Shown here: positions 3,101-56,509 of the stretch, one piece after another
Layout of the letters: the number at the start of each line of letters is the position of its first letter
How positions within the stretch are numbered: position 1 is the first letter of the stretch
DNA from: Candidatus Omnitrophota bacterium
Lineage (GTDB): Bacteria; Omnitrophota; Gorgyraeia; Gygaellales; Profunditerraquicolaceae
Direction: 5' to 3'
Assembly (NCBI GenBank): GCA_041650835.1
Contig: JBAZKL010000002.1
Coordinates: 538,435 to 602,434 of the forward strand
DNA: 64,000 nt
Position numbers and translations under genes: made by a program
The notes under the pieces: model-generated
The model's input: the letters and a program-made list of their open reading frames with translations, nothing else
Told to the model about the DNA's origin: nothing
Databases searched by the model: none

Positions 3101-4141
3101 GACAACAATGACCGAACGGCCTGAATAATCGACACGCTTACCTAACAAATTCTGTCTGAAACGCCCCTGCTTGCCTTTTAACATATCCGCAAGAGACTTT
3201 AAAGGACGGTTATTCGCTCCGACAACCGGCTTGCCGTGCCTGCCATTGTCCAATAACGCGTCAACGGACTCCTGCAGCATCCGCTTTTCATTTCGGATAA
3301 TGATCTCAGGCGCATTCAATTCTATTAATTTACGTAAACGGTTATTACGGTTAATGACCCTGCGGTATAGATCGTTCAGATCGGAAGTCGCGAATCTTCC
3401 GCCGTCAAGCGGGACGAGCGGCCTTAGATCGGGAGGAATGACCGGCAACACTTCAATGACCATCCACTCCGGCTTATTACCCGATTTCCTGAAATCTTCA
3501 ACGATCTTTAGATTTTTAAGCGTCTTACGGTTAAGCAGGACTTCTTTTGATTTCTCTAAATCCTTACGCAGCTTTCTGCAATATACGTCTAAATCTAATT
3601 CCTTCAGGAGTGTCTGGACCGCGGCGCCCCCAATCTCTGCCTTGAATTTTGAACCGTATTTCTCCAAAGCTTCCTGGTACTTTTCTTCATTTAATAGTTC
3701 TTTCTTCTTTAAGGGGGTCGTACCGGGATCGATAACAATATATTCTTCGTAATAAATGACCTTTTCCATATCCCTCAGGCTCATGTCCATAAGCGCTGCC
3801 AGCCGGCTCGGGACTACCTTGAAGAACCAGATATGCGTGACCGGAGCTGCCAATTCAATATGCCCCATGCGCTCTCTTCTGACAGAAGAACGATCGACCG
3901 TGACCCCGCAACGGTCGCAGGTGATACCTTTGAATTTAATGCCTTTATACTTTCCGCAGTTACACTCATAATCGCGGACCGGCCCGAATATCCTCTCGCA
4001 GAATAAACCGTCTTTTTCCGGCTTTAAAGTACGGTAATTAATGGTCTCCGCTTTCTTAACTTCACCCTTGGACCAGGAACGGATGATCTGCGTCGAGGCA
4101 AGCCTAATCGTTATATTATCAAACAGGATACTTTCTTCCAT
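104..4141 (-). CDS. rpoC: DNA-directed RNA polymerase subunit beta'
   Basis: 1345-aa ORF. It carries the conserved N-terminal zinc-finger region (CNCGKYKG...CDRCGV) and beta' catalytic motifs along its full length. Its start overlaps the rpoB stop at 4141. Confidence 0.97.
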
Positions 4142-11176: not shown

Positions 11177-11767
11177 TTATTGGATGACCGTTTTAAATAT
11201 GGTCATGGTGCATTTCGCAACGCTGGAATCCTGATTCTTCGGGCTGACCTGGTACTTCTGGATGGTCAAAAGTTTGCTTGAACTTTCAACGGCATACATA
11301 AAATCGATCAATTTATCCATTGCCGATTCAATATTTACCGTCACCATATACTTAACGCAGGAACCGATATTCTTGGCGCCGGCAGGCTTCATGTCAATAA
11401 GATATACCGAACTCTTGCTTGCCAGGACTTCGATCTCTTTTAAGAGCAGCGTAACTTGTTCTTCTTCCGATTGAGCGCCCCCTATATAGGAAGCATACTG
11501 CAGGATCTCAGCGGTTATCCGGTTCTTCAACCCCAGGACATGCAAAGAATTCTTAATTTCTTTTTCTTTTTTCTGTATATCTGAATCAAGCGATTTCATT
11601 TTTGAGAGGAACGGCGAAAAGATCCCCCGGTCCATAACGGTAATTGAAAGCACCGCGACAGCCGCGTATAAAGCCATCTTTTCCCGCTTTGATAAACGGG
11701 CGAGAATTTTACGGATTTCATCAAGCTTAGGGATCTTTATCATCTTTTCTACCGTTCTAATAAACAA
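11177..11767 (-). CDS. GspM/PilO-like inner-membrane assembly protein
   Basis: 196 aa with an N-terminal TM helix, a coiled coil and a C-terminal alpha/beta domain. It is the last gene of the pseudopilin and GspL-like run, where gspM would sit. Confidence 0.5.
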   Translation of the reverse strand: MFIRTVEKMIKIPKLDEIRKILARLSKREKMALYAAVAVLSITVMDRGIFSPFLSKMKSLDSDIQKKEKEIKNSLHVLGLKNRITAEILQYASYIGGAQSEEEQVTLLLKEIEVLASKSSVYLIDMKPAGAKNIGSCVKYMVTVNIESAMDKLIDFMYAVESSSKLLTIQKYQVSPKNQDSSVAKCTMTIFKTVIQ

Positions 11768-13227
11768 CCGATCTCAAAATCAGTCACGTCTTTCTTTCCT
11801 TCTTTTCGCTTAGTCGTATATTTAGTCTTGACTTCTTTGAAATATTTAGATTTCTCCATGCTATCAACGAACGAAAAAACCGCCGACATGGAATCAGCGG
11901 TCCCTTTTACCGTAAACTTCCCCTGGTCATCAAAGCGGATATCATTTAACGCCAGGTCCAAGGGGCTGATCGTATAAAGCTCCGTCAAAACTTCTAAAGA
12001 ATACCCCCTGCTGAATAAATAATTCTTGATCAGGCTGATCTTAGCTGAATCATTTTCTAATTTCACCGCCTGCTCATGGATAGCGGTGAACTCATGGCCG
12101 ATTTTCTTTAGATAAGCGTTTTTAAAATAAATCTGAGCGCCCATCGTAAAAAGCAGGACAATTAAAAACAACAGGGCCAAAATACCCGTTTTGACCATAT
12201 CCCGGCCGCGGGCTTCGAGAACTTTTTTTAACTTGATCTCTTCCGGGACCAGATCGACTTTGAGCTCATCGCAAAGCAGCGCCGCGGCAATCCCGCTCAG
12301 GAATGACAGCCGCTTGGCTTGCGTGGCGACAACAGAGGCGGCGACCTGGATCTGCAGACCTTTCAAATAAGGAGCTTCTTTTACCGGTATCTGCAAAGAA
12401 TCACCCAGCATTTTTTCTAACTCCGGCACTTCAGCCGTCGCGCCGGTAATGATGACCGATTGAGGCGGTTTCTCGATATTCTCAGCCTGATACGCCTCAA
12501 GTGATTTCTTAGCTTCCTCCAGGAACTTAACCTGATACTTCTCTTTTTCAGACGCCAACTGCTGCGCGCCTATTGCAAGAGCGCGGACAAAGATCACTTT
12601 ATGTTTGAACATAACGAAGAAATCACTTATTGTTTCATCGATATTGATAATGCTCGTCGGATATTCCGCGGTATCGCTTTTAGTGCTCTTGAGGATGAAC
12701 CTGCCCACTGCTTCAGGCGCAAAGTACACACGCTCAAAAGGAAATCCCGCCTTTGAGGCTATTTCAAAATGGCGCTTGACGACATTGCGGGCAACCATAA
12801 CAAGCAGCACTTTTGTGTAATTACGCTTATACGTGCCGATATCAATATAATCCACAATGATCTCTTCCCGGGAATACGGCGTGTGCCGGCCGGCCTGAAG
12901 GCTGATGATCTCTTTTATTTCCTGAGGGTTCGTTGAAGGGACTTCAATATTCTTTGTGATCAATAACTGTGAAGGCAACACATCGAACAAGCGCAACGGC
13001 TTAACATTCAAAGCGGTAAGAGCGGTATTGAGCAACTTGGCAATATCGGCGTCATTGGCCCCTGTCACCATATGGTTGGCCAGGGTCACGACTTCCTTCT
13101 TGTTCGGCGGCACAATTTTAATATAAGACAGTTTAAGATTATTGCCGCTGAGATCAAGCGTTACGATACCCGGCGAAACATTCAAACGGGTGAGAAAATT
13201 CAGTGATTGAAGACCTATTTTTTTCAT
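11749..13227 (-). CDS. GspL-like protein (cytoplasmic PilM-like actin-fold domain, TM helix, PilN-like periplasmic domain)
   Basis: 492 aa. The N-terminal roughly 330 aa resemble PilM/GspL cytoplasmic domains. A TM helix follows (GILALLFLIVLLFTMGAQIYF), then a periplasmic domain of about 130 aa. The gene is in the gspL slot between the gspK-like and gspM-like genes. Confidence 0.65.
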   Translation of the reverse strand: MKKIGLQSLNFLTRLNVSPGIVTLDLSGNNLKLSYIKIVPPNKKEVVTLANHMVTGANDADIAKLLNTALTALNVKPLRLFDVLPSQLLITKNIEVPSTNPQEIKEIISLQAGRHTPYSREEIIVDYIDIGTYKRNYTKVLLVMVARNVVKRHFEIASKAGFPFERVYFAPEAVGRFILKSTKSDTAEYPTSIINIDETISDFFVMFKHKVIFVRALAIGAQQLASEKEKYQVKFLEEAKKSLEAYQAENIEKPPQSVIITGATAEVPELEKMLGDSLQIPVKEAPYLKGLQIQVAASVVATQAKRLSFLSGIAAALLCDELKVDLVPEEIKLKKVLEARGRDMVKTGILALLFLIVLLFTMGAQIYFKNAYLKKIGHEFTAIHEQAVKLENDSAKISLIKNYLFSRGYSLEVLTELYTISPLDLALNDIRFDDQGKFTVKGTADSMSAVFSFVDSMEKSKYFKEVKTKYTTKRKEGKKDVTDFEIGCLLER

Positions 13228-13236
13228 TGTCGTGTT

Positions 13237-14241
13237 TTAAGAAACCTGGCGCCAATACAGGATTTCCCCTTTTTTATTGATCACACAGCGGACTTCCGCG
13301 GAATTCCTTCCTGAGTGAGATGCAGCAACCGAACGGACCATAAAATTGCCGGATTGCACTTGCAGGGAATTTTCAACTAAAGCGCTCAAAGAAGCCACCT
13401 CTGCCGGGCTTAAATTATATGCTTCACTTACCATAGGCACAATATCAGCGGCAGAAAGAAACACTTCATCATCTTCCGTGGCTTCCAAACCGTCTTTGCC
13501 GTTTCGTAACAAGAGTACCTTCTCGGCCAAATCTTCAGAAAAACCTATTGCCAAAAGGACCTCACGCGAAGCTGTATTAATATTGATCTTCCCGTTGCCG
13601 AAAACGGTCAGAAAAGGACTCACCCGGTTAAAGAGCGACTGTGTCACCTCTTTTACCAGGAGCAATTCATCTAAAACCTCAAAATCAGCGTTTTTTGCGT
13701 CATAGGGATACTTCAAATTCTTATAATACGAATCTTCCGCGCTGCCGGTCGATATTGAAAGCGCTGAATCCGCGTCGCGCCAGTCTATTATTGACGCTGC
13801 CAGTTCCTGCGACTGTTCTTCATCTAAAACGCCCGCGGCTATAAAGATACGGGATAAAATCGTGATATCGGCCTTATTGATATTGATCTTTCTTTCTTCA
13901 TCGATCAGGCCGTAACGCAATTCACCCGTCCCTCTATTATAACAAATATTAACCGTTGCGTCACCTATTTCTATCATTTTAAAATAATCCTGGTTATTGC
14001 TCCAAGGTTCTTTTAACGCGTGGCATTTTTTCTCGGTTTCGTTTAACATGAATGCTATCGCCTTCTTGACGCCGGCCTCAGCGCCGGAACATAATTGAGC
14101 GCGCCCTTCCAGGCGTTTAGCGAGCGTTAATTTCTGTCTGACCCCGAAACCCAGCTGCACCGCGAAAACCGTCAAAAGAAAAAGCGACCAGAGCGCTATG
14201 ATCAAAATGCTGGCTTTATTCGCGTTCACCGGATTTACCAT
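13237..14241 (-). CDS. GspK-like minor pseudopilin
   Basis: 334 aa with an N-terminal TM or prepilin-like helix and two HhH-like segments (ININKADITILSRI and ININTASREVLLAIGF) typical of T2SS protein K. It sits in the gspK slot. Confidence 0.6.
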   Translation of the reverse strand: MVNPVNANKASILIIALWSLFLLTVFAVQLGFGVRQKLTLAKRLEGRAQLCSGAEAGVKKAIAFMLNETEKKCHALKEPWSNNQDYFKMIEIGDATVNICYNRGTGELRYGLIDEERKININKADITILSRIFIAAGVLDEEQSQELAASIIDWRDADSALSISTGSAEDSYYKNLKYPYDAKNADFEVLDELLLVKEVTQSLFNRVSPFLTVFGNGKININTASREVLLAIGFSEDLAEKVLLLRNGKDGLEATEDDEVFLSAADIVPMVSEAYNLSPAEVASLSALVENSLQVQSGNFMVRSVAASHSGRNSAEVRCVINKKGEILYWRQVS

Positions 14242-14250
14242 TCCACCCTC

Positions 14251-14892
14251 TTACCCGCTTACCGGGATATTCACGGTCCTGGTTAAATAAAACACTTCCT
14301 CCCCCCGCAAAAACTCGATTTCCATCCGAACGGCTAACGGTACGGCATCCTGCAACCATTCTTCATGCCAGATATATTCCTTCTTCTCATCATCAAGATC
14401 ATAATACAGGAACCTAAGCGATCGTATATGCTCCAAGCCGCCTGCGTAAGCGTTCTTTTCTTCAGTAAAGACCGCGCTGTAATCAAATTGATCCCGGCGC
14501 AGGGTCCCCGCTGAACGGTCATAACGATAGGCTATTTTTCCCACGCTTGCCTGCTCCATGCGCGCGCTCAAAACGATACTGGCAAACTCCAGGGTATCGG
14601 CCTTTCCGATAAAACTGATGTTTTTAAGTTTAACGCAATTCCTCAAGTCAGAAGTAAATTTATCAAAGAAAATATTTATGTCTTCCTGGGGAAGCTGGCG
14701 GTTAAGCCGCTGCCATATTTTTATCCCGTTATTAAATGCCGAGAAAATCGCCAAAGAAACAACCGACATCATCATCGTCACAATAAGGATCTCGATCAGG
14801 GTAAACCCGCGCAGGATACGTCCTCTTACTTTATTCCGCTTGCCGCAGCGCATACACAGCCCTTTTGACTTGGAAATCATTTTTACTCTCAT
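14251..14892 (-). CDS. GspJ-like pseudopilin (prepilin-type N-terminal methylation domain)
   Basis: 213 aa with the motif RGFTLIEILIVTMMMSVV near the N-terminus. It sits between the gspI-like and gspK-like genes. Confidence 0.55.
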   Translation of the reverse strand: MRVKMISKSKGLCMRCGKRNKVRGRILRGFTLIEILIVTMMMSVVSLAIFSAFNNGIKIWQRLNRQLPQEDINIFFDKFTSDLRNCVKLKNISFIGKADTLEFASIVLSARMEQASVGKIAYRYDRSAGTLRRDQFDYSAVFTEEKNAYAGGLEHIRSLRFLYYDLDDEKKEYIWHEEWLQDAVPLAVRMEIEFLRGEEVFYLTRTVNIPVSG

Positions 14893-15226
14893 GCCGGGAG
14901 AGTGCCAGCTCTATCGCATACAAACTACTCCCGTCGCCCTCCGGCGCACCGGACACTTGCCACGTATAGGTCCGCCCCTCCACGATTATTTCGCCTTCCG
15001 CAGCCGTCGCATCATACGCTCCGGTACGGGTAAAAGAATCCTGGACCTCCCACAGCTTATCATCCATCCAGGGAGCTACGTTCAGATAGTTTTCGTAATA
15101 ATTATACGCGCGCAAAGAAACAAAGAACGCTTCATAAATAAAAACGATACCCAGCGAAAGTATTGTGGTAGTCACCAGGATCTCGATCAGGGTAAACCCG
15201 CGCTTCTTATTCAAGATCACTCCCAA
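14831..15226 (-). CDS. GspI-like minor pseudopilin
   Basis: 131 aa with the prepilin N-terminus KRGFTLIEILVTTTILSLGIV. The gene overlaps its neighbours on both sides, which suggests translational coupling. Confidence 0.55.
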   Translation of the reverse strand: MGVILNKKRGFTLIEILVTTTILSLGIVFIYEAFFVSLRAYNYYENYLNVAPWMDDKLWEVQDSFTRTGAYDATAAEGEIIVEGRTYTWQVSGAPEGDGSSLYAIELALSRHESKNDFQVKRAVYALRQAE

Positions 15227-15624
15227 TTCTTAATATCATCAGCGCTTTCAGCTCCGTCTTTACCTAACGAATAAAGATCGTAATCCGCCCTATGGTCTCC
15301 CGGTGATTTATACTTATATTCTCTTGCCCAGGGGTCAAGAGGCTTTTTTTCCACATAAGGGCCGTGCCAGTTAGGGGCTGATGATGGCTTCGCCATTAAA
15401 GCGTTCAAACCTTCTTCAGTAGTAGGAAAACTGCCGTTATCTAATTCATAGAGCTTTAAAGCGGTAGCGATATTGGCGGATATATCCGCTTGCGCGGCGG
15501 CAGCACGCGCCTGTTCGCCTCTTCCCGTAAGCCGGGGCATGACCATAGCGACCAGCGCCCCGATAATAATAACTACCAGCATCAATTCTATTAACGTAAA
15601 AGCCCTTGTTTTCTTATTATCCAT
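15217..15624 (-). CDS. gspG: type II secretion major pseudopilin GspG
   Basis: 135 aa with the class-III signal peptide and methylation motif (RAFTLIELMLVVIIIGALVAM). It also has the GspG-specific C-terminal calcium-site motif YSLGKDGAESADD. Confidence 0.8.
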   Translation of the reverse strand: MDNKKTRAFTLIELMLVVIIIGALVAMVMPRLTGRGEQARAAAAQADISANIATALKLYELDNGSFPTTEEGLNALMAKPSSAPNWHGPYVEKKPLDPWAREYKYKSPGDHRADYDLYSLGKDGAESADDIKNWE

Positions 15625-16173: not shown

Positions 16174-17058
16174 CTAATTGTTAGACAAGTACTCCTTCCA
16201 ACGCAACTCAAATTCATCGAGGGTGCGCATCTGGGTCGGAAAGACTGAAGCTAACGCGTCCGCAAGGGACTTCCCGTCGCGCAACTGCCGGCACAACTGG
16301 GCAAAATCAAGAGCTCCGTATTTTTCAATAAGAAACCCTACTAAAGAGGCGGACTGAATATAATACGTATTTACCAAAGCTTCGCCGCTTAAAGCCAGAT
16401 TTGCCCTTTGGCCGCTTTTTGTCAAAACAGAACGGATAAAGATCTTATCCATCTGCTTAACTTTTCTGATATCCAGACGCATCATATCAGAGATAGATAA
16501 CAAGGTATCATTGGCAAATAACTTTTTAACAAGAGAACGTATCAAAGCCCGCTTCTGAACCTCTTCCCATTGCGCTACCCCTTCGTCAAGCCACAAAGGG
16601 ACTTCCCCCTTAAAACCGACAAAATCACGGAATATTAAGTGCGTTATTTCATGCGGCAGGATAGAATCAAGGAAATCCCTGCTGAAAGCGTAACTAAAGA
16701 CCGCTTTTTTCGCATAATCGGCTAAACCATGCGACCAGTCGGGATGGCCTCCCGATCTCACAAACGACTCATGGTCGGAGTAGATATAGATCTTGACGCG
16801 GTTATCCCAGGTCCAGAATTCAGAAGCCCGGGAATATCCCAGGTCAGAAGCGATCCGCCCGTAGTATCCTTCAGCTTTATCCAAAACCTTCTTGACGAAA
16901 TCATTGTCCGAGACGAAATAAACAATAAAATGCTCGCCCTTTGCTTCTTTCCAGCTTTCAGCGTAAGACCGCGTAGCTCCCCAAACACTCACCCCAAAAA
17001 AGAACAAACAGGAAAGAACGAATATCTTGTGATAAGAACGCTTTAATGACGGCATCAT
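16174..17058 (-). CDS. secreted putative zinc metallopeptidase-like protein (HEXXH motif)
   Basis: 294 aa with an N-terminal signal peptide and an HEITH motif. The sequence resembles peptidase_MA-like families. Its start abuts the stop of the histidine kinase gene. Confidence 0.45.
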   Translation of the reverse strand: MMPSLKRSYHKIFVLSCLFFFGVSVWGATRSYAESWKEAKGEHFIVYFVSDNDFVKKVLDKAEGYYGRIASDLGYSRASEFWTWDNRVKIYIYSDHESFVRSGGHPDWSHGLADYAKKAVFSYAFSRDFLDSILPHEITHLIFRDFVGFKGEVPLWLDEGVAQWEEVQKRALIRSLVKKLFANDTLLSISDMMRLDIRKVKQMDKIFIRSVLTKSGQRANLALSGEALVNTYYIQSASLVGFLIEKYGALDFAQLCRQLRDGKSLADALASVFPTQMRTLDEFELRWKEYLSNN

Positions 17059-20230: not shown

Positions 20231-21448
20231 CTAATGAGCCATGACATTGATCTCAAATATCGGCAAAAGCATGGCGATAACAATAAAACCGACGATAAGG
20301 CCCATGCCCAGTATCATTAAAGGCTCCAAAAGACTGCTCATGACCTTGATCGCCTCATCGGTATCCCGCTCATATGAAGAGGCGACTTCCGATAATGCTT
20401 CATCTAATTTCCCTGATTCTTCCCCCACAATAAGCAAATTGGTCATGAAAAGCGGAAAAAGCGAGGCATTTTTCAAGCTCCTGCCAAAAGAACCTCCCTG
20501 CTCCAGGTCTTTGTAACTCGTACGCAATTTCCCTTTTATCACTTCATTCTCTAATATCGGGATACCGACCTCAAGCGCCTTTAAAATAGGGATCCCGCTC
20601 TTGATCAACAGTTCCAGCGTCCGGCAGAAACGCGAAAGTTCAGCCTTAAGGATGAATTTACCGAATACCGGGACATGAAGCTTAAAGACGCTTAAAAAAG
20701 ACCTGCCGGCGGTTGATTTTAATTGCTTAGCTGCGACGAAGATTACCGCGACCAGGACCAGGAGTATCCAAACGCCCCAGTGCCGCAAACCTTCACTGAC
20801 ACTTATAAGTATCCTCGTCGGAAGAGGCAATTTCTGGTCTATATTGTTATAAATATTAAGCAGCCGGGGCATGACAAACGTAAGCATAAAAATGATCGTG
20901 CCGACACCGACCATCGCCATAAGCATGGGATACGCCATCGCCATCCGGAAACGCGCGAACATCTCTTCTTGTTTGGAACGGTATTCGGAAATCCGCAGCA
21001 GCATCTCAGGCAAAGAACCGCTGTCTTCTCCGACACGGACCATCGCGATATAAATAGGAGGAAAAATCCGAGGATATTGCATCAAGGTCGCGGAAAAAGT
21101 TGAGCCTTCTTTAACCGCGTCATGGATATTCCTGACCATGGCTTTCAGGGAGGAATTCTCCGATTGTTCAGAAATGATATTAAGGGCGGCGAGAATTGGT
21201 ACCCCTGCTTTAAGGAGGCTGGCTAATTGGCGGCTTATAATAGTGATTTCCGCGGAACGGACATTACCGGTAAACCTGTTGAAAGAGGTTGTTTCACGGG
21301 CAGCAGAAACGCCGCATTCCTCTATATGGACGGGAATGTAGCCCAAAGCGCTGATCCTTTCAATAGCTTCTTTTTCAGAACGGCCCTCAATCCTGCCTTC
21401 AACAATATTCTGAGGGTCTTTTTTAGCGCGATACGAATATACAGGCAT
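20231..21448 (-). CDS. gspF: type II secretion / type IV pilus platform protein GspF/PilC
   Basis: 405 aa with two paralogous GspF-type cytoplasmic domains and three TM segments. It lies downstream of the gspE-like gene. Confidence 0.85.
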   Translation of the reverse strand: MPVYSYRAKKDPQNIVEGRIEGRSEKEAIERISALGYIPVHIEECGVSAARETTSFNRFTGNVRSAEITIISRQLASLLKAGVPILAALNIISEQSENSSLKAMVRNIHDAVKEGSTFSATLMQYPRIFPPIYIAMVRVGEDSGSLPEMLLRISEYRSKQEEMFARFRMAMAYPMLMAMVGVGTIIFMLTFVMPRLLNIYNNIDQKLPLPTRILISVSEGLRHWGVWILLVLVAVIFVAAKQLKSTAGRSFLSVFKLHVPVFGKFILKAELSRFCRTLELLIKSGIPILKALEVGIPILENEVIKGKLRTSYKDLEQGGSFGRSLKNASLFPLFMTNLLIVGEESGKLDEALSEVASSYERDTDEAIKVMSSLLEPLMILGMGLIVGFIVIAMLLPIFEINVMAH

Positions 21449-21498: not shown

Positions 21499-23646
21499 TT
21501 ATTTACTTTCTTGTTCTATATACTTATCTAAGCGGACTCTCTGGGCGCCGGTCATATCAAGAAAGCAAATTGCGACATTATAAACTTTTTCAGTTTCAGT
21601 TTCCTGGCTGCGGACAACCTTAGCTAAGCATTCAATGGGGCTATCATTGTCCGGCAATTCTATCGTTAACTCTAAATACGCCCGGGGAGGTATCATTTCT
21701 ATCGAAGTAAACGTCAATCCCCCGGCAGAAATATTAGACGTAACGCTCAACTGTTCGACCGTATACCCCTGATTAATTAATTCTTCCTGTGATTTAAAGA
21801 TCTTATACCGCAGGTTAACCCGGCTGTTCAAACGGCTAAACACCCGTTTATCGGCATCGGAGGGTTTAGACATTTCTCTGCGCAAAGAATCCCCCCCATA
21901 AGCATCCTGCAACCCTTCCTGCGGCTGGAAATATTCCTCGGCAGAAGTGACATTCATAACTTCTTCGGGTGTCGTCAAACCCAGGATGGTCTTTTGCCAG
22001 CCATCCTGGCGTAACGTTCGCATGCCTCGCGAAACAGCGAATTTCTTGATCTGTCCCGCTGAAGACTTATTCAAGATAAGGTCTTTGACCGTATCATCGA
22101 TCAATAAGATCTCGTAAATGGCCGTCCTTCCCAGGAAACCGGTAAAATTACAGTTCGCGCATCCTCTGCCGCGGAATACCCGCACTTCATCCTTTGATTT
22201 TAATGCTAAATCCCGGATAATGGTTTCACTTAATTCTTCAGGAATATCCATTTGCTCATACTTACAATCAGGGCAGATCAGGCGTATTAAACGCTGCGCA
22301 ATAAAGGCTTCGACGCTTGAAGCGACCAGATAAGGCTCCAAGCCGATATCCACTAAACGGGTAATACCGCTGGCAGCGTCATTGGTATGCAGCGTCGAAA
22401 ATACCAGATGGCCGGTAAGCGCGACACGGATGGCGATCTCAGCTGTCTCCAGGTCCCTGACCTCTCCCACCATGATCACATCGGGATCGTGGCGTAAAAT
22501 ACTCCGCAAGCCCCGGGCAAAATCCAACCCTATCTCGGACATGACCTGTATCTGAGTGACTCCTGACATCTCATACTCGATCGGGTCTTCTATAGTAATG
22601 ATCTTGCGTTCCCGCGTATTGATCCTGCTTAAACTGGCATATAACGAAGTGGTCTTCCCGCTCCCTGTCGGGCCGGTCACAAAAATAATACCGTGCGGTT
22701 TACGGATCAAACCTTCAAATATATTCAGGTCGCGCTTTGACAGACCCAATTTCTCAAGGCTGAACAACATCTGAGTAGGCAAGATACGCACGACCACGCT
22801 CTCCCCGAAAGGCGTAGGTATCGTCGATATCCTCAAGTCTAAAACCTGTTCCTGGACTTTAACCACTGCCCTGCCGTCCTGGGGCATACGGCGTTCAACG
22901 ATATTAAGGTTCGACATGATCTTAATACGCGAGATGATCGCTGTGATAAAACCTTTTATTTCCGGGCCGACATTCGCGTCATAAAGCAAGCCGTCAATAC
23001 GGTAACGAAGCACCACCCCGTCCCGATATGGCTCAATATGGATATCGGTGGCCCGTTTACGCCATCCTTCAAGTATGATCTGATTGACTAATTTGATGAT
23101 CGAGGCGTCTTCGGCTAATTTCGCGATATCAACGACTTTTTCGTTGGAAGGTTCCTGAGGAGAGGATTCATCTTTGGAAATCTGAGAAACGATCCTGTCC
23201 AGGGTTTCCGCGGCCAGACCGTAATATTCTTTTAACGCGCTGACAATATCCGAGGACAACGCAAGGGCAGTCTCGATCTCGAAACCCAGCTGCATACTTA
23301 TCTCATCCTGGATCTTAATGTCGAGCGGCATTGAAACGGCTATGGTCAAACAACGGTCTTTCAAATCAAGCGGCATGAATTTATAATACGAGGCGATCTT
23401 CACCGGTACCGCGGCGATCACGGCCTTATCGATCAAACGGCCTTTAAAATCAATAAGGCGCAGCTGCAGGTTTTCCGAGAGGATCTGTAAAATCGTTTTC
23501 TCGGGGACCGCGGCATGCTTGAGCAGGACATTCCAGAGAGGAAGAGACATACCTTCGGCTTCTTTGATCAGAGGCTCTAAAGATTCTCTCGAGGCGATCT
23601 TACGGACGATCAACGCTTCAAAAAGTATCGTATCAAGTTTAGTCAT
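21499..23646 (-). CDS. gspE: GspE/PilB-family secretion ATPase with C-terminal PilZ domain
   Basis: 715 aa with a T2SSE_N-like N-terminus, Walker A GPTGSGKTT and the tetracysteine cluster CPDC...CANC. A C-terminal extension of about 150 aa carries the PilZ signatures RLNSR and NISAGG. Confidence 0.85.
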   Translation of the reverse strand: MTKLDTILFEALIVRKIASRESLEPLIKEAEGMSLPLWNVLLKHAAVPEKTILQILSENLQLRLIDFKGRLIDKAVIAAVPVKIASYYKFMPLDLKDRCLTIAVSMPLDIKIQDEISMQLGFEIETALALSSDIVSALKEYYGLAAETLDRIVSQISKDESSPQEPSNEKVVDIAKLAEDASIIKLVNQIILEGWRKRATDIHIEPYRDGVVLRYRIDGLLYDANVGPEIKGFITAIISRIKIMSNLNIVERRMPQDGRAVVKVQEQVLDLRISTIPTPFGESVVVRILPTQMLFSLEKLGLSKRDLNIFEGLIRKPHGIIFVTGPTGSGKTTSLYASLSRINTRERKIITIEDPIEYEMSGVTQIQVMSEIGLDFARGLRSILRHDPDVIMVGEVRDLETAEIAIRVALTGHLVFSTLHTNDAASGITRLVDIGLEPYLVASSVEAFIAQRLIRLICPDCKYEQMDIPEELSETIIRDLALKSKDEVRVFRGRGCANCNFTGFLGRTAIYEILLIDDTVKDLILNKSSAGQIKKFAVSRGMRTLRQDGWQKTILGLTTPEEVMNVTSAEEYFQPQEGLQDAYGGDSLRREMSKPSDADKRVFSRLNSRVNLRYKIFKSQEELINQGYTVEQLSVTSNISAGGLTFTSIEMIPPRAYLELTIELPDNDSPIECLAKVVRSQETETEKVYNVAICFLDMTGAQRVRLDKYIEQESK

Positions 23647-23688
23647 ACGTGCCTATTACAAAACGCAAACCCTGTTATTAATCACCCC

Positions 23689-24174
23689 TTACTGCTGCGG
23701 TTTATCTTTTCTCAAGAGGCGCTGAATACTCTGGCTGATGTGCTGCCGGTAATTCTTGATCACTTCCTGCAGGTCCTCTTCATTCGTCAACACTAAGTTC
23801 ACCTTGCGGGGGCGCGCTTCCTCTTCTACCTTACTGATAGCAACGGCATTAAGCGGATTAATGATCGCGACCGTAATTGAATCCTCATCCCCGTAGAGCG
23901 GAAAGCATTTATGGTCAAGGATCAGCGACGAGGAGAATTTACGCGCCAATTCCATATCAATATATTGCGTCTTTAAATTAGCGACCGGGATCTGGAATTG
24001 AACGGAGAGAGCCTCCATCAGGTTGTGGTCGTTGATCAACCCTTTATTGATCAAGATCGTGCCCAAAAATTTATCGCTGAGCTTCTGTTCAACTAACGCG
24101 TCATGCAACTGAGCTTCCGTGATCCACCCCTTTTCTACGAGTATTTCACCTATTCTTTTAGGCATTTTTTCCAT
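23689..24174 (-). CDS. standalone GspE N-terminal (T2SSE_N-like) domain protein
   Basis: 161 aa resembling the N1 domain of GspE and MshE ATPases (GWITEAQLHDALVEQK...). It lies 12 nt downstream of the atpD stop. Confidence 0.55.
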   Translation of the reverse strand: MEKMPKRIGEILVEKGWITEAQLHDALVEQKLSDKFLGTILINKGLINDHNLMEALSVQFQIPVANLKTQYIDMELARKFSSSLILDHKCFPLYGDEDSITVAIINPLNAVAISKVEEEARPRKVNLVLTNEEDLQEVIKNYRQHISQSIQRLLRKDKPQQ

Positions 24175-24186
24175 GGCAATCTCCTG

Positions 24187-25578
24187 TTATACTGTTCCAA
24201 TCATATATAAATCACCTTCCGGCTTGCGGTCGAGGTGCCCGGACAGAATTTTTTCACAGCCTTCAACCGTCTGCGCTATGGTGACAAACTCTCCCTTTTT
24301 ACCCGTATACGCTTCGGCGACAAAGAACGGTTGCGTGAGGAAATATTGCAGCTTACGCGCCCGTTCATAGATGATACGGTCGCCGGCAGAAAGCTCGTCA
24401 ATACCGATGACCATGACGATACGCCTGAGCTCTTCGTAACGCTGCAGCATACGGATGACGTCCTGAGAGACCTGGTAATGGCGCTTACCGACGATATCAG
24501 GGTCAAGATTCGCGCAGCTAGACATAAGCGGATCGATCGCCGGATACAAACCTAACTGGATCCTTTGCCGGGAAAGGACCATGATAGAATCCAGGAAGCT
24601 GAAGATCGTCACAACCGCCGGGTCGGTCAAATCGTCGGCGGGGATATAAACCGCTTCTACCGAAGTAATAGAACTTCCCGTTTCATGGGAAGACTTGATC
24701 CTCTCGTGGAACTCACTCGCCTCGGAGATCAGGGTAGGCTGATACCCTGTTTCAGAAGGAAGCCTGCCCAGCAAACTTGAAATTTCCGCCCCTGCCTGGA
24801 GGAAACGAAAGATATTATCCACGAACAACAAAACATCCTGGTGCTTACGCTGGATCGATTCTGCCAGGGTAGCCCCGCTAAAAGCCACGCCAAAACGGGC
24901 CCCCGGGGGCTCATTCATCTGGCCGAATATCAAGACGGTCTTCGATAAAATATTCCTGCGCTCCAATTCATAATACAGCTCATTTCCCTCACGCATACGC
25001 TCACCTGCGCCCACGAAAACGCAGGCACCGCTGTGTTTGCGGACAATATTATGGATGATCTCAAGGGTCAGGATACTTTTTCCCAACGCCGCACCTCCCA
25101 GGATCCCGTTCTTAGAACCTTTCACGAGCGGAAAAAGCAGGTCTATGATCTTAATACCTGTCTCTAAAACTTCGAATTTCTCGGCTTTTTCTTTGCTCGA
25201 AAAAGACTGTGCTGCCCGTTGAGGCCTGATCGGCAGCCGCTCACCGGGAGCGATTTCACCTTTCTGGTCGATCGGGTCACCCCAAATATTAATGATCCTG
25301 CCGTAAATGCTATCTCCCGCGGGGATCTGTATCGGGGTTCCGGTAGGGATAACGACACTATTACGTTGCAGGTTAAAGGTGGAATTAATAGCAATACACC
25401 GGGCAATGTTACCGGCGACATGTTCAGCGACCTCTAAGACTACCCTTTTACCGTCAACCGTCTGCGTGTTGATATTATCAAATATCGCGGGGATATCCTC
25501 TTCCCGCTCAAATTTGACATCAACGACCGGCCCCTGTACTGAGATTACACGACCTGGTTTGAGATGAGTATTGTCCAT
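24187..25578 (-). CDS. atpD: F-type ATPase beta subunit
   Basis: 463 aa with the beta-barrel N-domain and the blocks GERMREGNELY, MNEPPGAR and DELS. The P-loop reads GGAALGKS instead of the usual GGAGVGKT. Confidence 0.9.
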   Translation of the reverse strand: MDNTHLKPGRVISVQGPVVDVKFEREEDIPAIFDNINTQTVDGKRVVLEVAEHVAGNIARCIAINSTFNLQRNSVVIPTGTPIQIPAGDSIYGRIINIWGDPIDQKGEIAPGERLPIRPQRAAQSFSSKEKAEKFEVLETGIKIIDLLFPLVKGSKNGILGGAALGKSILTLEIIHNIVRKHSGACVFVGAGERMREGNELYYELERRNILSKTVLIFGQMNEPPGARFGVAFSGATLAESIQRKHQDVLLFVDNIFRFLQAGAEISSLLGRLPSETGYQPTLISEASEFHERIKSSHETGSSITSVEAVYIPADDLTDPAVVTIFSFLDSIMVLSRQRIQLGLYPAIDPLMSSCANLDPDIVGKRHYQVSQDVIRMLQRYEELRRIVMVIGIDELSAGDRIIYERARKLQYFLTQPFFVAEAYTGKKGEFVTIAQTVEGCEKILSGHLDRKPEGDLYMIGTV

Positions 25579-25693
25579 AGTCTTAATTAACCGTTATGTT
25601 ACACCCCGCCTTTTTGGAGTGGCGGAGTACGCCGCTTTCTGCCCAGAAAGGGCGCACCCAGCATACCTATAAGCTGGGGTGCTTGCGGCACCT

Positions 25694-26542
25694 CTATTTA
25701 AATGCCAACCGCGCCGCGAATAACTCCCGCATATTCTTATCGATCAATTCATGGCGCTGACGGAAATATTGTATTTTTAATTCCTTATTCAACTGCTCGA
25801 TCTTTGTCTTACTGGTCTCTAAATGGCTATAGCGCGCTGAAAGTTCAGCTAAACGCGATATGCCGAAGATCTGGAAGAATTTCTGGCCCAGGAATAAATA
25901 CATCCAATATTCCAGCAAGCCGTCAAGCGGAGATTCAACAATTAAATCCTTCACTCCCCCTGAAGCCGTTTTTCTCTGGAACTGATCGGCTTTAGAAAAA
26001 GGGAAAAGCTGCAAAACCTTGACCTGCTGGGCAACGATCGAAAGGGAATAGGGATACACGACCTTCAGTTCTCCCAATTTACCGCTTTGCTCCTCATTTA
26101 AAACATAATCCCTCAACTCGAGGGCCTGTTCCAGCCTGGTCTCGTCTTTTACTCCCTTAAAAACAACATAGGGAAGGTCCGTTTCAGAGGCGTAAATCTT
26201 CCCCTTTTCTCCGACGATAAGAAGCTTGGAATTGTTTTTCTCCGCTTCTTTGATCGCCTGGGTCATCACATTCATATTCAAACCGCCCAAGAGGCCCGCG
26301 TCAGAAGTAAGCGCGATCACTCCCGGCTGGCGGCTGCTCGATTCCAGCAAGTGGTGTTTAATGCCGCCTGCCTGCAGCAGCTCAAAGATACTTCCCAGAT
26401 GGCTGAACACTGAATCAAAGGTCTTGAGTTTACGTTCAAGCACCCGGTATTGAGCTATGGCGATCTCTTTTAAAACCTCAACGAGGCTATAGAGGTTGAG
26501 GTTAAAATCCATATCTTTCTTGATCTGAGAAAGTAATTTCAT
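25694..26542 (-). CDS. atpG: F-type ATPase gamma subunit
   Basis: 282 aa with gamma-like N- and C-terminal helices (...ELIDKNMRELFAARLAFK). It sits between the alpha and beta genes. Confidence 0.75.
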   Translation of the reverse strand: MKLLSQIKKDMDFNLNLYSLVEVLKEIAIAQYRVLERKLKTFDSVFSHLGSIFELLQAGGIKHHLLESSSRQPGVIALTSDAGLLGGLNMNVMTQAIKEAEKNNSKLLIVGEKGKIYASETDLPYVVFKGVKDETRLEQALELRDYVLNEEQSGKLGELKVVYPYSLSIVAQQVKVLQLFPFSKADQFQRKTASGGVKDLIVESPLDGLLEYWMYLFLGQKFFQIFGISRLAELSARYSHLETSKTKIEQLNKELKIQYFRQRHELIDKNMRELFAARLAFK

Positions 26543-26545
26543 ACG

Positions 26546-28027
26546 TTACACAACCGCGAAATAATGGTTCATTGCTTCGTATAACATTTCTATACTGGCA
26601 TCATTGATGATCATCGTCGTACGGATCTCTTTAAAAAGATTCGGGAACTCTTTTTCCACCAGTCCGACAAATTCGTTCTTAAACTTCTGGATATCGGCAG
26701 GGGATAAAGTATCCAGCACCCCCATGCTTAAAGCGAATAAGAACATGACTTCCGACTCCATCTCGATCGGCTTATTCTTATCCTGGATCAAAAGCTGGGT
26801 GATCGCCTGGCCCCGCTTCATACGGTCTTCGGCTTCCTTGGAAAGGCCGGTCGTGCGCAGCTGCGTCATCTGCAGCAATTCCTGATACTGGATATATTCA
26901 AGTCTCAACTGGCCGCTCAACGCTTTCATTGCCGGCCACTGCGCTTTATTGCCGATACGGGAAACCGAAAGGCCGAAATCGATCGCCGGACGAACGCCTT
27001 TGTTAAAAAGCTGAGTGCTGAAGTAGATCTGCCCGTCAGTCATAGAGATCAAATTACTGGAAATATATCCCGTAACATCACCCTGCAATATCTCAACGAT
27101 CGGCAAAAACGTCATTGAACCGCCGCCGAGCTCCGGCTTTAAGTATCCGGCGCGTTCCATCATCTGGGAATGGATATAAAAAATGTCTCCCGGGTACGCT
27201 TCTCTTCCCGGGGCGCGCTCCAGTAAAAGCGAGATCTGACGGTATACCCAGGCATGCTTCGTCAGGTCATCGTGGATCAAAAGGACGTCTTTACCTTTTT
27301 TCATGAAATATTCGCCTAACATGCACGCGGTATAGGGAGCTAAATACTGCTCGCCCATAGAAACAGAAGCGACAGCGCTCACCACAATAGTATACGGCAT
27401 TACTTCTTTTTCATTAAAAAGGTTTAAAAGCTTAAGAAGGCTGGAATTAGTCTTTCCGATACAACAATAAATACAAATAACATCCTGTTTCTTCTGATTG
27501 ATGATCGCGTCAATAGCGACAGTCGTCTTACCCGTAAGACGGTCTCCGATCAAAAGCTGCCGCTGGCCTTTGGCGATCGGGATAACCGCGTCCAAGAGCA
27601 ATGTCCCGGTTTCCAGTGTTTCTTTAACGGGGGCGCGGTCCATAACACCGGGAGCATCGGTAAAAAGAGGATAGTACGCCGACGGTTCAATAGGGCCTTC
27701 ATTATCAACAGGCTCGCACAAGCTATTGACGATCCTGCCGATAAATTTATCCCCTACCGGCAAATGCAAGAACTCCCCCTTACTTAATACTTTCCCGCCG
27801 ATATGCAAAGACCCCTTAACATCAATTACTAATACCTGGACCTCTGCTTCATTAAAACCCAAAACCATGCCCCGCCCGCCCTGTTCAAACTCCACGATCT
27901 GCCCGTTAATGCAGGAAGGAAGGCCTTTTACCCGCACCACGCATTCACGCACCGATACGATCACACCTATTTCGCGCGCTTCAAAATTCGCCTCAGCATG
28001 ATTTTCATGCATACCATCCACCTTCAA
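26546..28027 (-). CDS. atpA: F-type ATPase alpha subunit
   Basis: 493 aa with the alpha P-loop GDRLTGKTTVAIDAIINQK and conserved alpha C-terminal blocks. Confidence 0.92.
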   Translation of the reverse strand: MKVDGMHENHAEANFEAREIGVIVSVRECVVRVKGLPSCINGQIVEFEQGGRGMVLGFNEAEVQVLVIDVKGSLHIGGKVLSKGEFLHLPVGDKFIGRIVNSLCEPVDNEGPIEPSAYYPLFTDAPGVMDRAPVKETLETGTLLLDAVIPIAKGQRQLLIGDRLTGKTTVAIDAIINQKKQDVICIYCCIGKTNSSLLKLLNLFNEKEVMPYTIVVSAVASVSMGEQYLAPYTACMLGEYFMKKGKDVLLIHDDLTKHAWVYRQISLLLERAPGREAYPGDIFYIHSQMMERAGYLKPELGGGSMTFLPIVEILQGDVTGYISSNLISMTDGQIYFSTQLFNKGVRPAIDFGLSVSRIGNKAQWPAMKALSGQLRLEYIQYQELLQMTQLRTTGLSKEAEDRMKRGQAITQLLIQDKNKPIEMESEVMFLFALSMGVLDTLSPADIQKFKNEFVGLVEKEFPNLFKEIRTTMIINDASIEMLYEAMNHYFAVV

Positions 28028-28030
28028 TTC

Positions 28031-28768
28031 CTATTGCGCTTTTGATAATTGATGCGCTTTTACCGCTTCCTGGATCTTAAAGCGCAGGCTCCCGTCAAGC
28101 ACCAAGCTGCCGATACTGACTACCCAGCCGGCAATAATATTAGGGTCTGTAGATTCTTTTAACGTGATCGGGAAACCGACTTTTTCATTGATCTTACCCG
28201 ACAAAGCCGTTCGCTGCGCGTCGGTAAGGAGGAACGCCGTTACCACCCCTGCTTCCTGTATGCCCTCAGGAATATGCAACCGGTCCAATTGCGCGAAGTT
28301 ACCCGCGATCAATTCATCGATCCAGCGTTCATGGATCATGGTGCGGATATTTTCAGGGATTACTTCCTGCAACAATTGCGCTGCCCGATGAATCCCCTTA
28401 TCTTCTATACGCTGTTCGATCTCAGCGATCAAAGCATTACGGGCACGATCAGCCTGAAGCATCATTTCATCAGCTTTTACCTGGGCCTCTTTAATGATCT
28501 TTTCTTTCTCCTCCTGCATTTCCTTTAATAAACGCTGCTTCTGCTGTTCGGCGTCTTTCATTGCAAGTTCTTTAATTTCCTGGGCTTCACGCTTAATATC
28601 GTCATATTGCTTTTTTATATCCTGTTCTTTCTTGGCATATTCAGCGGCCATCTGGTCCAGATGAGCGGTTGCCGCGCCGACGTCACGGTTAAAGATCTTG
28701 TTCAAGGAAACCACTAAAACAATGAAAACAATAATAATGAGGACTATGAAAGGGATCAGTATAAGCAT
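28031..28768 (-). CDS. atpFH: F-type ATPase b–delta fusion subunit
   Basis: An N-terminal TM helix and charged coiled coil (AEYAKKEQDIKKQYDDIKREAQEIKE...) resemble subunit b. The C-terminus is OSCP/delta-like (...IIAGWVVSIGSLVLDGSLRFKIQE). The called ORF extends to 28891 from a TTG codon and overlaps atpE. The internal ATG at about 28768 (MLILIPFIV...) is the more plausible start. Confidence 0.65.
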   Translation of the reverse strand: MLILIPFIVLIIIVFIVLVVSLNKIFNRDVGAATAHLDQMAAEYAKKEQDIKKQYDDIKREAQEIKELAMKDAEQQKQRLLKEMQEEKEKIIKEAQVKADEMMLQADRARNALIAEIEQRIEDKGIHRAAQLLQEVIPENIRTMIHERWIDELIAGNFAQLDRLHIPEGIQEAGVVTAFLLTDAQRTALSGKINEKVGFPITLKESTDPNIIAGWVVSIGSLVLDGSLRFKIQEAVKAHQLSKAQ

Positions 28769-28835
28769 TTCTTTAAACTCCTTTATTACCGGAGGACACT
28801 GGCGGTATGAATAATACCGGCAAACTCCGTAACAC

Positions 28836-29048
28836 TTAACTGAATAACTGGAAAGCGACAAACAGGGCGATGATCGCCGCCCCTTCGGCAAATGCGGTCA
28901 GCATGATCATGACGATAAAGATCTTCGGCGCGGCCGACGGGTTCCTTCCTAACGCGGCGATACTGGCTTTTCCGCAGGAGGCAAAGACCCAACAGGGGCC
29001 CGCGATACAAAACGTAAAGATCAAAAGCAACGCTAAATTTCTATCCAT
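28836..29048 (-). CDS. atpE: F-type ATPase c subunit
   Basis: 70 aa forming a two-helix hairpin. It has a GK...GRNP loop and a helix-2 carboxylate in the context LTAFAEGAAI. Confidence 0.7.
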   Translation of the reverse strand: MDRNLALLLIFTFCIAGPCWVFASCGKASIAALGRNPSAAPKIFIVMIMLTAFAEGAAIIALFVAFQLFS

Positions 29049-29049
29049 G

Positions 29050-29277
29050 TTATTCTTCCATGATGATCGTGGTCTTATTCGATTGAACGCCTACCATGCC
29101 CCGACGGATAGCGAATACATTCTGGTCCACGATAACGTTTCCTTTAACCAAACGGCTCACCAAAGGCTTGTGATAATCTAAAACTTCAAAAACCCCCTGT
29201 TCTCCGGGAAGCATAACACTATGAGCCTTACCTTCGAAGACTATTTTATCGAGCGTAACAACGATAACATCCTGCAT
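29050..29277 (-). CDS. atpC: F-type ATPase epsilon subunit, N-terminal beta-sandwich only
   Basis: 75 aa (MQDVIVVTLDKIVFEGKAHSVMLPGEQGVFEVLDYHKPLV...). The sequence matches the epsilon N-domain. The C-terminal helical hairpin is absent. Confidence 0.7.
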   Translation of the reverse strand: MQDVIVVTLDKIVFEGKAHSVMLPGEQGVFEVLDYHKPLVSRLVKGNVIVDQNVFAIRRGMVGVQSNKTTIIMEE

Positions 29278-29345
29278 GCGTTTATATTATAGCATTAAAG
29301 AGGTTACACACTAATAATTATACAATCGCTTAATAATTATACCAT
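29278..29345 (-). promoter_or_regulatory. candidate promoter of the ATPase–T2SS operon (extended −10 TGcTATAAT 7–15 nt upstream of the atpC ATG; possible leaderless mRNA)
   Basis: The minus-sense sequence reads ...GTGTGTAACCTCTTTAATGCTATAATATAAACGC-ATG. No Shine-Dalgarno sequence is present. Two further TATAAT hexamers lie upstream. Confidence 0.3.
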
Positions 29346-30132
29346 TGTTTTAGGTTATTGAAAATGTTATTTTGTCGCAGGCACAAGACACAAGTCGCAG
29401 GTCTCAGGTCGCTTGCTATCCGGTGAACGGGTCCTGTCTTGGACTATTTTCTCGCGGGGACGTTTGCCCCGCCCCGGCGTGGCGGGGCTGCACTCAGGTC
29501 GGCTGCGTCGCTCTGCCCGACTTCGTTTATCGAGGGGCATCCGTGCCCGCTCCTTGCCTTTATGCCCCGCTCGAAAACAGTCCAAGCCACCCGTTCACTA
29601 ATAAAAACCCTGGTCAGACACAAGTCATAAAATAATCTATAGTCGATGGTCAATAGAGAAGGAAAATCAGAGTAACCGGGAATCGGGTCGCAGGTCTCAG
29701 GTCGCAAGACACAAGTACACAAGACACAGGTAATCCGGAACTATATGATCAGGTAATCAGGAAATTGAAAAAGAAAGATAATCGAGTAAGAATGCCCCTG
29801 TTGAGATTGTGAGCGAATGGAGCTTTTAGCCGGAGGAGCTTGAGCATTTGAGGGAATGCCAGTGGAGCGCGTAAGCGCGACAACACTGGCAAGGCGAGGT
29901 TGTCTGAGCAGTATTTGCCAGAGCAAATACTGCGAGTTCCGCAGCCTCCGAAAATGCGAAAGATCTCCGGCGTTACCCGGATTAGCCTTTTCTAAAACAA
30001 AAGGCTAATCCGGGTAAAAAAGCGACTTGAGCGAACAATCCAACAGGGGCATTCTTGGTAAGCTCAAAATAACAGGTCGCATGGCACAATTACACAAGAC
30101 GCAAGTCACAACGAAGATAACAGCCAACAGTT

Positions 30133-30182
30133 AAATAAAAAACGCGGGACCACTCCGGGAAATTACCGGAACGGCCCCGCGC
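30133..30182 (-). terminator. intrinsic terminator of the giant gene
   Basis: On the minus strand a GC hairpin (GCGCGGGGCCGTTCCGGTAATTTCCCGGAGTGGTCCCGCG) is followed by UUUUUUAUUU. It begins about 15 nt after the stop codon at 30197. Confidence 0.65.
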
Positions 30183-30196
30183 TTATTACTTTAGAT

Positions 30197-56502: not shown

Positions 56503-56509
56503 CTTATGG

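Follow-up and report, generated by a model that had tools for sequence, protein, structure and literature searches.

The cellulose synthase BcsA carries a canonical C-terminal PilZ domain in cis, for which an autoinhibitory contact has been documented. In V. cholerae MshE and P. aeruginosa PA14_29490, cyclic diguanosine monophosphate (c-di-GMP) acts directly on the assembly motor, an ATPase with an N-terminal MshEN fold (PMC5013675, PMC4624772), and a tandem 24-residue motif with a 5-residue spacer was defined from the MshEN-c-di-GMP crystal structure by Wang et al. (PMC5013675). An MshEN fold with a degenerate ligand motif is documented for X. campestris XpsE (PMC5013675), and in Xanthomonas a PilZ protein binds the ND0/ND1 domain of PilB at nanomolar affinity (PMC8389850). 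The control of GspE/PilB motors by c-di-GMP through N-terminal MshEN domains is still poorly understood (review PMC11656802). Here, a 64-kb stretch of a Candidatus Omnitrophota genome (contig JBAZKL010000002.1, positions 538,435 to 602,434; the whole stretch is called the window below) was analyzed with respect to a 715-aa GspE/PilB-family ATPase with a C-terminal PilZ domain and a 161-aa stand-alone MshEN protein encoded immediately upstream. With a probability of about 0.6, we consider the ATPase to be the motor of a conserved Omnitrophota type IV-filament operon, similar to type II secretion systems (T2SS) and type IVa pili (T4aP), in a derived form with a re-wired c-di-GMP input.

The original prediction, made from the window sequence, had described the two open reading frames (ORFs), and both were recovered with the same coordinates and sizes (Table 1); both are real and conserved across Candidatus Omnitrophota. 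The GspE hallmarks it had named for the larger protein (N1 domain, Walker A, and tetracysteine site) were confirmed by Pfam matches to MshEN and T2SSE, and GPTGSGKT, TGHLVFSTLHTND (the His-box region), CPDC, and CANC were present and invariant in 70 homologs. The combination of MshEN, T2SSE, and PilZ was common to all 120 best database homologs of the 715-aa protein in precomputed Pfam annotations, far more than chance would give. The best NCBIfam model was TIGR02533 for GspE (575.4 bits, under the cut-off of 630.25), and TIGR02538 for PilB scored 534.5 bits (under the cut-off of 675.65); the ATPase is nearer to GspE than to PilB and belongs to neither equivalog.

The C-terminal PilZ domain, which had been proposed from two short signatures, was verified by a Pfam search, in which PF07238 matched residues 604-712 (profile positions 6-102 of 102) with 39.8 bits and an E-value of 6.1e-10, above the gathering cut-off of 22.5. 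To assess conservation, 24 and 70 homologs were aligned, together with 42 PilZ sequences derived from related loci of GTDB species representatives. The letters RLNSR, taken as the first signature, are present at residues 605-609, but the register was incorrect, because the conserved motif, R601-VFS-R605, starts four residues earlier in the consensus context D-K/R-R-x-Y/F-x-R-L. R609 is unconserved, being replaced by Lys in 45/69 database homologs and in 18 of the 42 loci-derived sequences. Among the database homologs, R601 was retained in 69/69 and R605 in 68/69; among the loci-derived sequences, each was retained in 41/42. The second signature, NISAGG, was correctly read, with N/D638, S640, and G643 essentially invariant. 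Each of R601, R605, N/D638, S640, and G643 was kept in at least 41/42 and at least 68/69 sequences, down to orthologs of about 45% identity, and the conserved Arg and Asp/Asn positions were thus retained, near-invariant, in 111 homologs. The AlphaFold2 (AF2) model showed six strands and a C-terminal helix in this region (predicted local distance difference test score, pLDDT, 65-83), inside a poor whole-protein model. As judged from these motifs, the domain is a canonical PilZ domain. Because its ligand-contacting residues are strongly conserved, the best reading would be that c-di-GMP acts directly on the motor by way of a PilZ receptor covalently joined to it, as the original prediction had suggested. 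Additional PilZ-only ORFs with canonical motifs (162, 300, and 192 aa) were observed directly 3' of the ATPase gene in two related loci (L023 and L024).

The ATPase's N-terminal domain was recognized by Pfam MshEN (PF05157; 3.2e-13, residues 61-146) and was modelled by AF2 as a four-helix bundle plus N1 with a pLDDT of 85-91. NF053729 is a curated NCBIfam model of exactly the 53-residue MshEN motif, with a cut-off of 38 bits. It gave no match at E<=0.01 to the N-domain of the window ATPase, and its best E-value among 24 PilZ-type homologs was 4.9e-7, which on bits-to-E scaling would lie below the cut-off. In the numbering of V. cholerae MshE (VcMshE), the window ATPase has I for R9, F for G11, A for Q32, W for G40, and N for Q61. 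When the N-termini from 80 GTDB species loci were aligned to VcMshE, the PilZ-fused ATPases (n = 37) had kept G11 in 5/37, Q32 in 0/37, G40 in 3/37, and Q61 in 0/37; the corresponding counts were 37/42, 33/42, 27/42 (with Cys in a further 12), and 30/42 in the Omnitrophota ATPases without PilZ (n = 42), and 21/21, 21/21, 21/21, and 17/21 in the stand-alone small proteins (n = 21). All ten tested ATPases without PilZ passed NF053729 (53-64 bits), nine of them from the orthologous operon linked to the F-type ATPase (atp) genes. The hydrophobic core positions of the N-domain were kept in all three groups, so the MshEN fold persists even where the ligand contacts have disappeared. According to these alignments, the c-di-GMP motif is gone from the MshEN domain that the ATPase itself carries. 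As the motif is lost in the PilZ-type ATPases and kept in the orthologs without PilZ, the gain of PilZ appears to track the decay of MshEN.

The 161-aa protein had been described as consisting only of a GspE-N1-like domain. Such a subdomain is present, but the fold and the NF053729 match indicate a complete two-subdomain MshEN, composed of an N-terminal four-helix bundle, the N1-like subdomain, and a C-terminal helix. Pfam MshEN matched residues 60-145 (1e-11), and NF053729 matched with 66.1 bits over profile positions 1-53 of 53. The N-terminus, RIGEILVEKGWITEAQLHDALVEQ-KLSDK-FLGTILINKGLINDHNLMEALSVQ, comprises residues 7-30, the 5-residue spacer KLSDK, and residues 36-59. The same model was matched by 36/36 tested family members (E<=0.001), and G9, Q30, F36, G38, G45, L56, and Q59 were invariant among 36 homologs. 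In a phmmer alignment with 5htl, the VcMshE contacts R9, L10, G11, G18, L25, L29, Q32, L39, G40, G47, L54, L58, and Q61 were all matched. The AF2 model (pLDDT 85.8) had as its top Foldseek match 5htl, V. cholerae MshE with c-di-GMP (template modelling score 0.87-0.90, root-mean-square deviation 1.9-2.0 A), with the X. citri PilB N-terminal chain of 7lko third and the c-di-GMP-bound PilF GSPII-B among the later matches; 2bh1 was a weak structural match. The ORF has its own AGGAG ribosome-binding site and start codon, lies 12 nt past the atpD stop codon, and belongs to a family of 178 database matches with a length of 158-175 aa and a mean column identity of 67%. Since the MshEN c-di-GMP motif is intact, the 161-aa protein, a whole MshEN domain standing alone, is predicted to be a receptor in its own right.

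The gene order giant ORF, atpH-A-G-D, small gene (where present), and GspE to GspM is conserved across the phylum, and the linkage of the F-type ATPase genes to the filament operon is kept in most related loci. Among the loci with upstream sequence, the small gene was present in 19/34 PilZ-type and 1/38 non-PilZ loci, at a median distance of about 5 nt from the ATPase start, with some genes overlapping. In a neighbor-joining tree of the ATPase cores, most PilZ-type ATPases clustered on the atp-linked side. A few atp-linked ATPases without PilZ (L036, L038, L059, and L071, and also L037) fall within the deeper part of this grouping, where the separation of the PilZ-type set is consequently not clean; the deeper PilZ-type branches lack the small gene, which is confined to one crown subclade. 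The small proteins scored a median of 58-89 bits against motif-intact N-domains and 36-62 bits against PilZ-type N-domains, and shared 20-29% identity with the N-domain of the neighboring ATPase. These two results rule out simple gene fission and are compatible with two origins, in which either a ligand-competent domain was duplicated or the ATPase N-domain diverged at an accelerated rate. The small gene was rejected as a detached ATPase N-terminus, the ATPase keeping a complete N-domain. The same metagenome-assembled genome (MAG) can hold two gsp/pil-like operons (L010 with L067; L076 with L057), one atp-linked with a PilZ-type ATPase and the other with a motif-intact MshEN ATPase without PilZ. 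In L007, a second MshEN-containing ORF of 366 aa (2984-3990) lies between the small gene and the ATPase gene.

We infer an evolutionary order from MshEN sensor to PilZ fusion to separate MshEN gene. The ancestral state would have been a GspE/PilB-type ATPase sensing c-di-GMP through its own MshEN domain, as in V. cholerae MshE, and this state is still seen where other Omnitrophota carry orthologous operons. Within one clade, the C-terminus may then have been fused to a canonical PilZ domain through a flexible tether of about 30-45 residues, while the ATPase MshEN domain would have retained its fold and lost the ligand-contacting Gly and Gln residues. In the crown subclade that includes the window, the gene immediately upstream encodes a separate protein of about 160 aa whose MshEN motif is intact.

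An exhaustive phmmer search of 1.84 billion representatives, with the PilZ region as query, yielded 423 matches; most of those examined were either small PilZ proteins or fragments from the C-terminus of members of this fusion family. Three divergent full-length matches were examined, and all had the MshEN + T2SSE + PilZ architecture; the only full-length fusion match carrying an organism name was from Omnitrophota. There was no evidence of this fusion beyond Omnitrophota in the matches examined among the 423.

A c-di-GMP-I riboswitch aptamer (RF01051) with a 53-nt insertion was detected with 36.0 bits against a gathering score of 35. It precedes orf397 by 120 nt, and orf155 and the giant ORF come next in order. 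A TTGACA-17-TATACT promoter-like site 5' of the aptamer (flanks approximately 56505-56740) and, 3' of it, an 8-bp hairpin (ATCTCAGG/CCTGAGAT) followed by T9 were read by eye. A riboswitch of the same clan was found at the equivalent position in 3/5 related loci (L082, L084, and L085; E 1e-8 to 2e-10), with no match at that position in L081 and L083. The 8192-aa product of the giant ORF has Ig-like repeats of about 90 aa (with Kre9_KNH and Reelin subrepeat matches), an N-terminal signal-like segment, and a C-terminal hydrophobic segment resembling a transmembrane segment; neither GGDEF nor SecA domains were found in it. Since a riboswitch of the c-di-GMP-I clan lies upstream of the adhesin operon, the attachment proteins and the machine may share one signal, which suggests that the giant adhesin operon and the secretion machine respond to the same second messenger. 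The pair orf397 and orf155 is conserved directly upstream of giant ORFs in Omnitrophota, with more than 2000 homologs, and the order WbqC, PIG-L, GT4, orf397, orf155, and giant gene was found in 5/5 related loci; the pair appears to be an accessory fixed to the giant gene and not a mobile element.

Because the ligand residues are conserved in both the PilZ domain and the small protein, binding of c-di-GMP by both would be the most economical reading. Binding to the tethered PilZ domain would alter its intra- or inter-subunit contact with the hexameric motor or the N-domain, and this altered contact could gate pseudopilus or pilus assembly, for which the in-cis PilZ domain of BcsA is the closest analogy. 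The stand-alone MshEN protein would be a second c-di-GMP receptor, acting in trans, and the ligand-loaded form may dock by its N1-like subdomain on a GspL/PilM-like platform or on the PilZ or N-domain of the ATPase, for which the PilZ-PilB pair of Xanthomonas offers a precedent. The motor could thereby read c-di-GMP at two sites, possibly with different affinities. The effect of the ligand may be activation, which is favoured by analogy with MshE. A fuller scheme, in which the sensor moved from MshEN to the tethered PilZ domain and MshEN was re-acquired as a detachable subunit acting on the PilZ/N-domain, to give a two-receptor gate coupled to the adhesin, is tentative and, taken as a whole, rather unlikely. 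If true, it would provide two thresholds or AND logic and would couple pilus or secretion activity to the riboswitch-controlled expression of the giant adhesin during host-cell attachment.

Several observations weigh against the re-wired input and its coupling to the adhesin. The claims of ligand binding for the PilZ domain and the 161-aa protein rest on conservation of motif and fold. A profile search of the PDB with the PilZ region found one weak match with NISAGG aligned, the c-di-GMP-related PilZ protein YpfA/MotI (5vx6, E 0.0036), and a single-sequence search of the PDB with the same region found no matches. One VcMshE contact differs in the 161-aa protein, where R38 is replaced by Phe at the start of motif II; this position is likewise not Arg in the c-di-GMP-binding GSPII-B domain of T. 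thermophilus PilF, where it is Leu. The full-length AF2 model of the ATPase, built from a 70-sequence alignment, had a mean pLDDT of 57.8 and a predicted template modelling score of 0.29; being usable at the N-domain and the PilZ region only, it is uninformative on PilZ docking. The riboswitch score in the window is marginal (36.0 versus 35), and the best model in the related loci is the GGC variant, which remained under its gathering score of 59; we know of no established ligand of this variant. Neither a diguanylate cyclase nor a phosphodiesterase is encoded in the 64-kb window. The small gene was absent from 15/34 PilZ-type loci and is therefore not obligatory for function. Finally, the counts of PilZ, MshEN, and small-gene states are of phylogenetically non-independent events.

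The fused PilZ domain could be a protein-protein adaptor that does not bind c-di-GMP, like the non-canonical Xanthomonas PilZ linking PilB to FimX. Examples exist of PilZ domains whose sole role is protein contact with PilB (PMC8389850; 10.1101/814665), and the PilZ region of the ATPase is distant in sequence from solved PilZ structures. However, the Xanthomonas-type PilZ lacks RxxxR and DxSxxG (10.1101/814665), whereas both are near-invariant here in more than 100 homologs, and the Pfam score exceeds the gathering cut-off; we therefore regard this reading as highly improbable. For the 161-aa protein, the original prediction had raised competition or scaffolding at the GspL-like partner. In such a model, the protein would act independently of ligand as a decoy or scaffold, its N1-like subdomain vying with the ATPase for the GspL-like platform; this agrees with the presence of that subdomain, with the binding of GspL by GspE N1 domains, and with the weak match to 2bh1. 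A pure decoy, however, needs no conserved c-di-GMP contacts, and G9, Q30, G38, and Q59 are invariant in 36 homologs, all of which matched NF053729; nor does the identity of 20-29% with the neighboring N-domain give any sign of a shared binding surface. This role is quite improbable and a weaker idea than that of a c-di-GMP-dependent adaptor.

The small protein may also serve generally as a c-di-GMP effector or buffer with a target elsewhere, such as the second MshEN-type gsp/pil operon of some genomes or the F-type ATPase, its position reflecting no more than inherited gene order. MshEN domains are found in many contexts (PMC5013675), some MAGs have two gsp-like operons, and gene order is very conserved in the phylum. 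Against this, the small gene lies directly upstream of the ATPase gene, often overlapping its start, and occurs almost only beside motif-less PilZ-type ATPases (19/34 versus 1/38), and an effector acting elsewhere appears distinctly unlikely. That the small ORF is an artefact, whether a piece of an ATPase gene that was split or frameshifted or a duplicate in decay, is scarcely credible, given the complete N-domain of the ATPase, the Shine-Dalgarno sequence and start codon of the ORF itself, its stable length of 158-175 aa in 178 homologs, and its invariant functional residues. A PilZ-fused motor accompanied by a c-di-GMP-dependent MshEN adaptor is the reading that we prefer.

The features of the window are listed in Table 1.

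Table 1. Positions of features in the window (-, minus strand)
Feature	Position	Strand	Basis or remark
Pseudopilins GspG, GspI-like, GspJ, GspK; PilM-PilN fusion (GspL-like); GspM-like	11177..15624	-	
GspL-like protein	11749-13227		
Peptidase-MA protein	16174-17058	-	signal peptide and HEITH motif
PAS histidine kinase, 1028 aa	17059-20145	-	between GspF and peptidase genes
GspF/PilC-type platform protein	20231..21448	-	Pfam T2SSF 1.9e-60; NCBIfam TIGR02120 370.6, under cut-off 424
715-aa GspE/PilB-family ATPase with C-terminal PilZ	21499..23646	-	Pfam; stop codon within range
PilZ domain, residues 598-715	21502..21855	-	Pfam PF07238
(D/N)xSxxG (NISAGG, 638-643)	21718-21735	-	
RxxxR (RVFSR, R601-R605)	21832-21846	-	
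Variable linker of about 33 residues, ATPase core to PilZ	21856..21954	-	gap-rich, unconserved in alignments; pLDDT <50
T2SSE ATPase core, residues 178-564	21955..23115	-	Pfam PF00437 1.5e-126
Tetracysteine C458/C461/C496/C499 (CPDC, CANC)	22264-22275, 22150-22161	-	
Walker A G325-PTGSGKT-T333	22648-22674	-	
N-terminal MshEN-fold domain, residues 1-146	23209..23646	-	degenerate c-di-GMP motif
161-aa stand-alone MshEN protein	23689..24174	-	Pfam, NCBIfam, AF2, Foldseek
53-residue c-di-GMP motif, residues 7-59	23998-24156	-	NF053729
F-type ATPase genes, directly upstream of the 161-aa gene	24187..29277	-	same orientation
Best promoter-like site, just 5' of epsilon gene	29364-29336		consensus match alone
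Strong terminator, 3' of giant gene	30184-30140		consensus match alone; the only one
Giant 8192-aa ORF	30197-54775	-	
orf155, 155 aa	54780-55247	-	signal peptide
orf397, 397 aa	55249-56442	-	'transposase' in databases; Y1_Tnp-like N-domain, transmembrane helix, extracytoplasmic C-domain
c-di-GMP-I riboswitch aptamer	56562-56688	-	RF01051

On the minus strand, the giant ORF is followed by the F-type ATPase genes, the 161-aa and 715-aa ORFs, GspF, the PAS histidine kinase, the peptidase-MA protein, GspG, GspI-like, GspJ, GspK, the PilM-PilN fusion, and GspM-like, and thereafter by nusG, rplKAJL, and rpoBC. The intergenic gaps flanking the 161-aa and 715-aa ORFs are 12, 42, and 50 nt. Between the giant gene and the epsilon gene (29278-30196, approximately 920 nt), neither a convincing ORF nor an Rfam match at gathering thresholds was found. 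GspG scored above its NCBIfam equivalog cut-off (143.7 versus 88.85), whereas GspF, I, J, K, and M were recognizable yet under theirs, and no secretin or PilT was found in the 64-kb window. The F-type ATPase genes are arranged in the order epsilon (75 aa), c (70 aa), b/delta fusion, alpha, gamma, and beta, and no a subunit was found within the window. The content and order of this cluster are unusual, its epsilon subunit consists of the beta-sandwich only, and its alpha subunit passes the canonical atpA equivalog cut-offs. Only a few related loci (L002, L015, and L076) have a histidine kinase homolog between GspF and the pseudopilin genes; in L020 and L024, the homolog separates GspE from GspF. 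Near the kinase gene of the window, no cognate response regulator was observed. The peptidase-MA gene is kept between GspF and GspG in most PilZ-type loci, and its product may be a substrate or accessory of the machine.

With its giant ORF, F-type ATPase, and type IV-filament operon, the window matches the 'symbiotic F-type ATPase/T4aP locus' of Seymour et al. (2023, PMC10066038), in which T4aP is the TXSScan class given to such loci; giant-gene neighborhoods in Omnitrophota were also treated by West-Roberts et al. (2023, bioRxiv 10.1101/2023.11.21.568195). In the passages found in them by term searches, neither paper describes the PilZ fusion, the decay of the MshEN motif, or the stand-alone MshEN gene. 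No description of a covalent GspE/PilB-PilZ fusion, or of its pairing with a stand-alone MshEN protein, was found in the literature searched, most subscription journals lying outside its scope. The proteins themselves are not new, since public protein records already show this architecture in their precomputed Pfam annotations; what would be new is the interpretation that the sensor was relocated from MshEN to PilZ and that MshEN was supplied again in trans. The lineage provides comparative material, with MshEN in cis, PilZ in cis with a dead MshEN, and PilZ in cis with MshEN in trans. It also makes c-di-GMP a candidate master signal for the attachment apparatus, that is, the giant adhesin and the pilus or secretion machine, of ultra-small, host-dependent Omnitrophota. 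To our knowledge, there are no cultures or genetics for these organisms.

Compared with the described systems, the window ATPase belongs to the same family as MshE and PA14_29490, shares their N-terminal MshEN fold, and is accompanied by a 161-aa protein with the same tandem 24-residue motif; unlike in those proteins, the motif-bearing MshEN is a separate polypeptide, the MshEN domain of the ATPase is degenerate, and a C-terminal PilZ domain is added. BcsA is a glycosyltransferase and not a hexameric secretion ATPase, and any autoinhibitory contact here is an assumption. Thermus thermophilus PilF (PMC11731258, PDB 8pdk) arranges three GSPII/MshEN domains, ligand-binding and non-binding copies, around one motor, and its GSPII-B resembles the small protein in the non-Arg residue at the start of motif II; all of its MshEN copies are in one polypeptide without PilZ, unlike the Omnitrophota arrangement. 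The Xanthomonas PilB-PilZ-FimX complex (PMC8389850; PDB 7LKO) likewise combines a PilZ fold with a motor of the PilB/GspE type that lacks c-di-GMP binding by its own N-domain, and demonstrates that a PilZ domain and an MshEN-type N-domain are able to pair tightly. No FimX-like gene was found in the 64-kb window. Since PilZ, MshEN, and GspE are all well known, the locus extends known c-di-GMP biology and introduces no new principle. In Xanthomonas, the separate PilZ protein has no c-di-GMP motifs, and it is FimX, through its EAL domain, that reads the ligand, whereas the Omnitrophota PilZ domain is covalently fused to the motor and is canonical.

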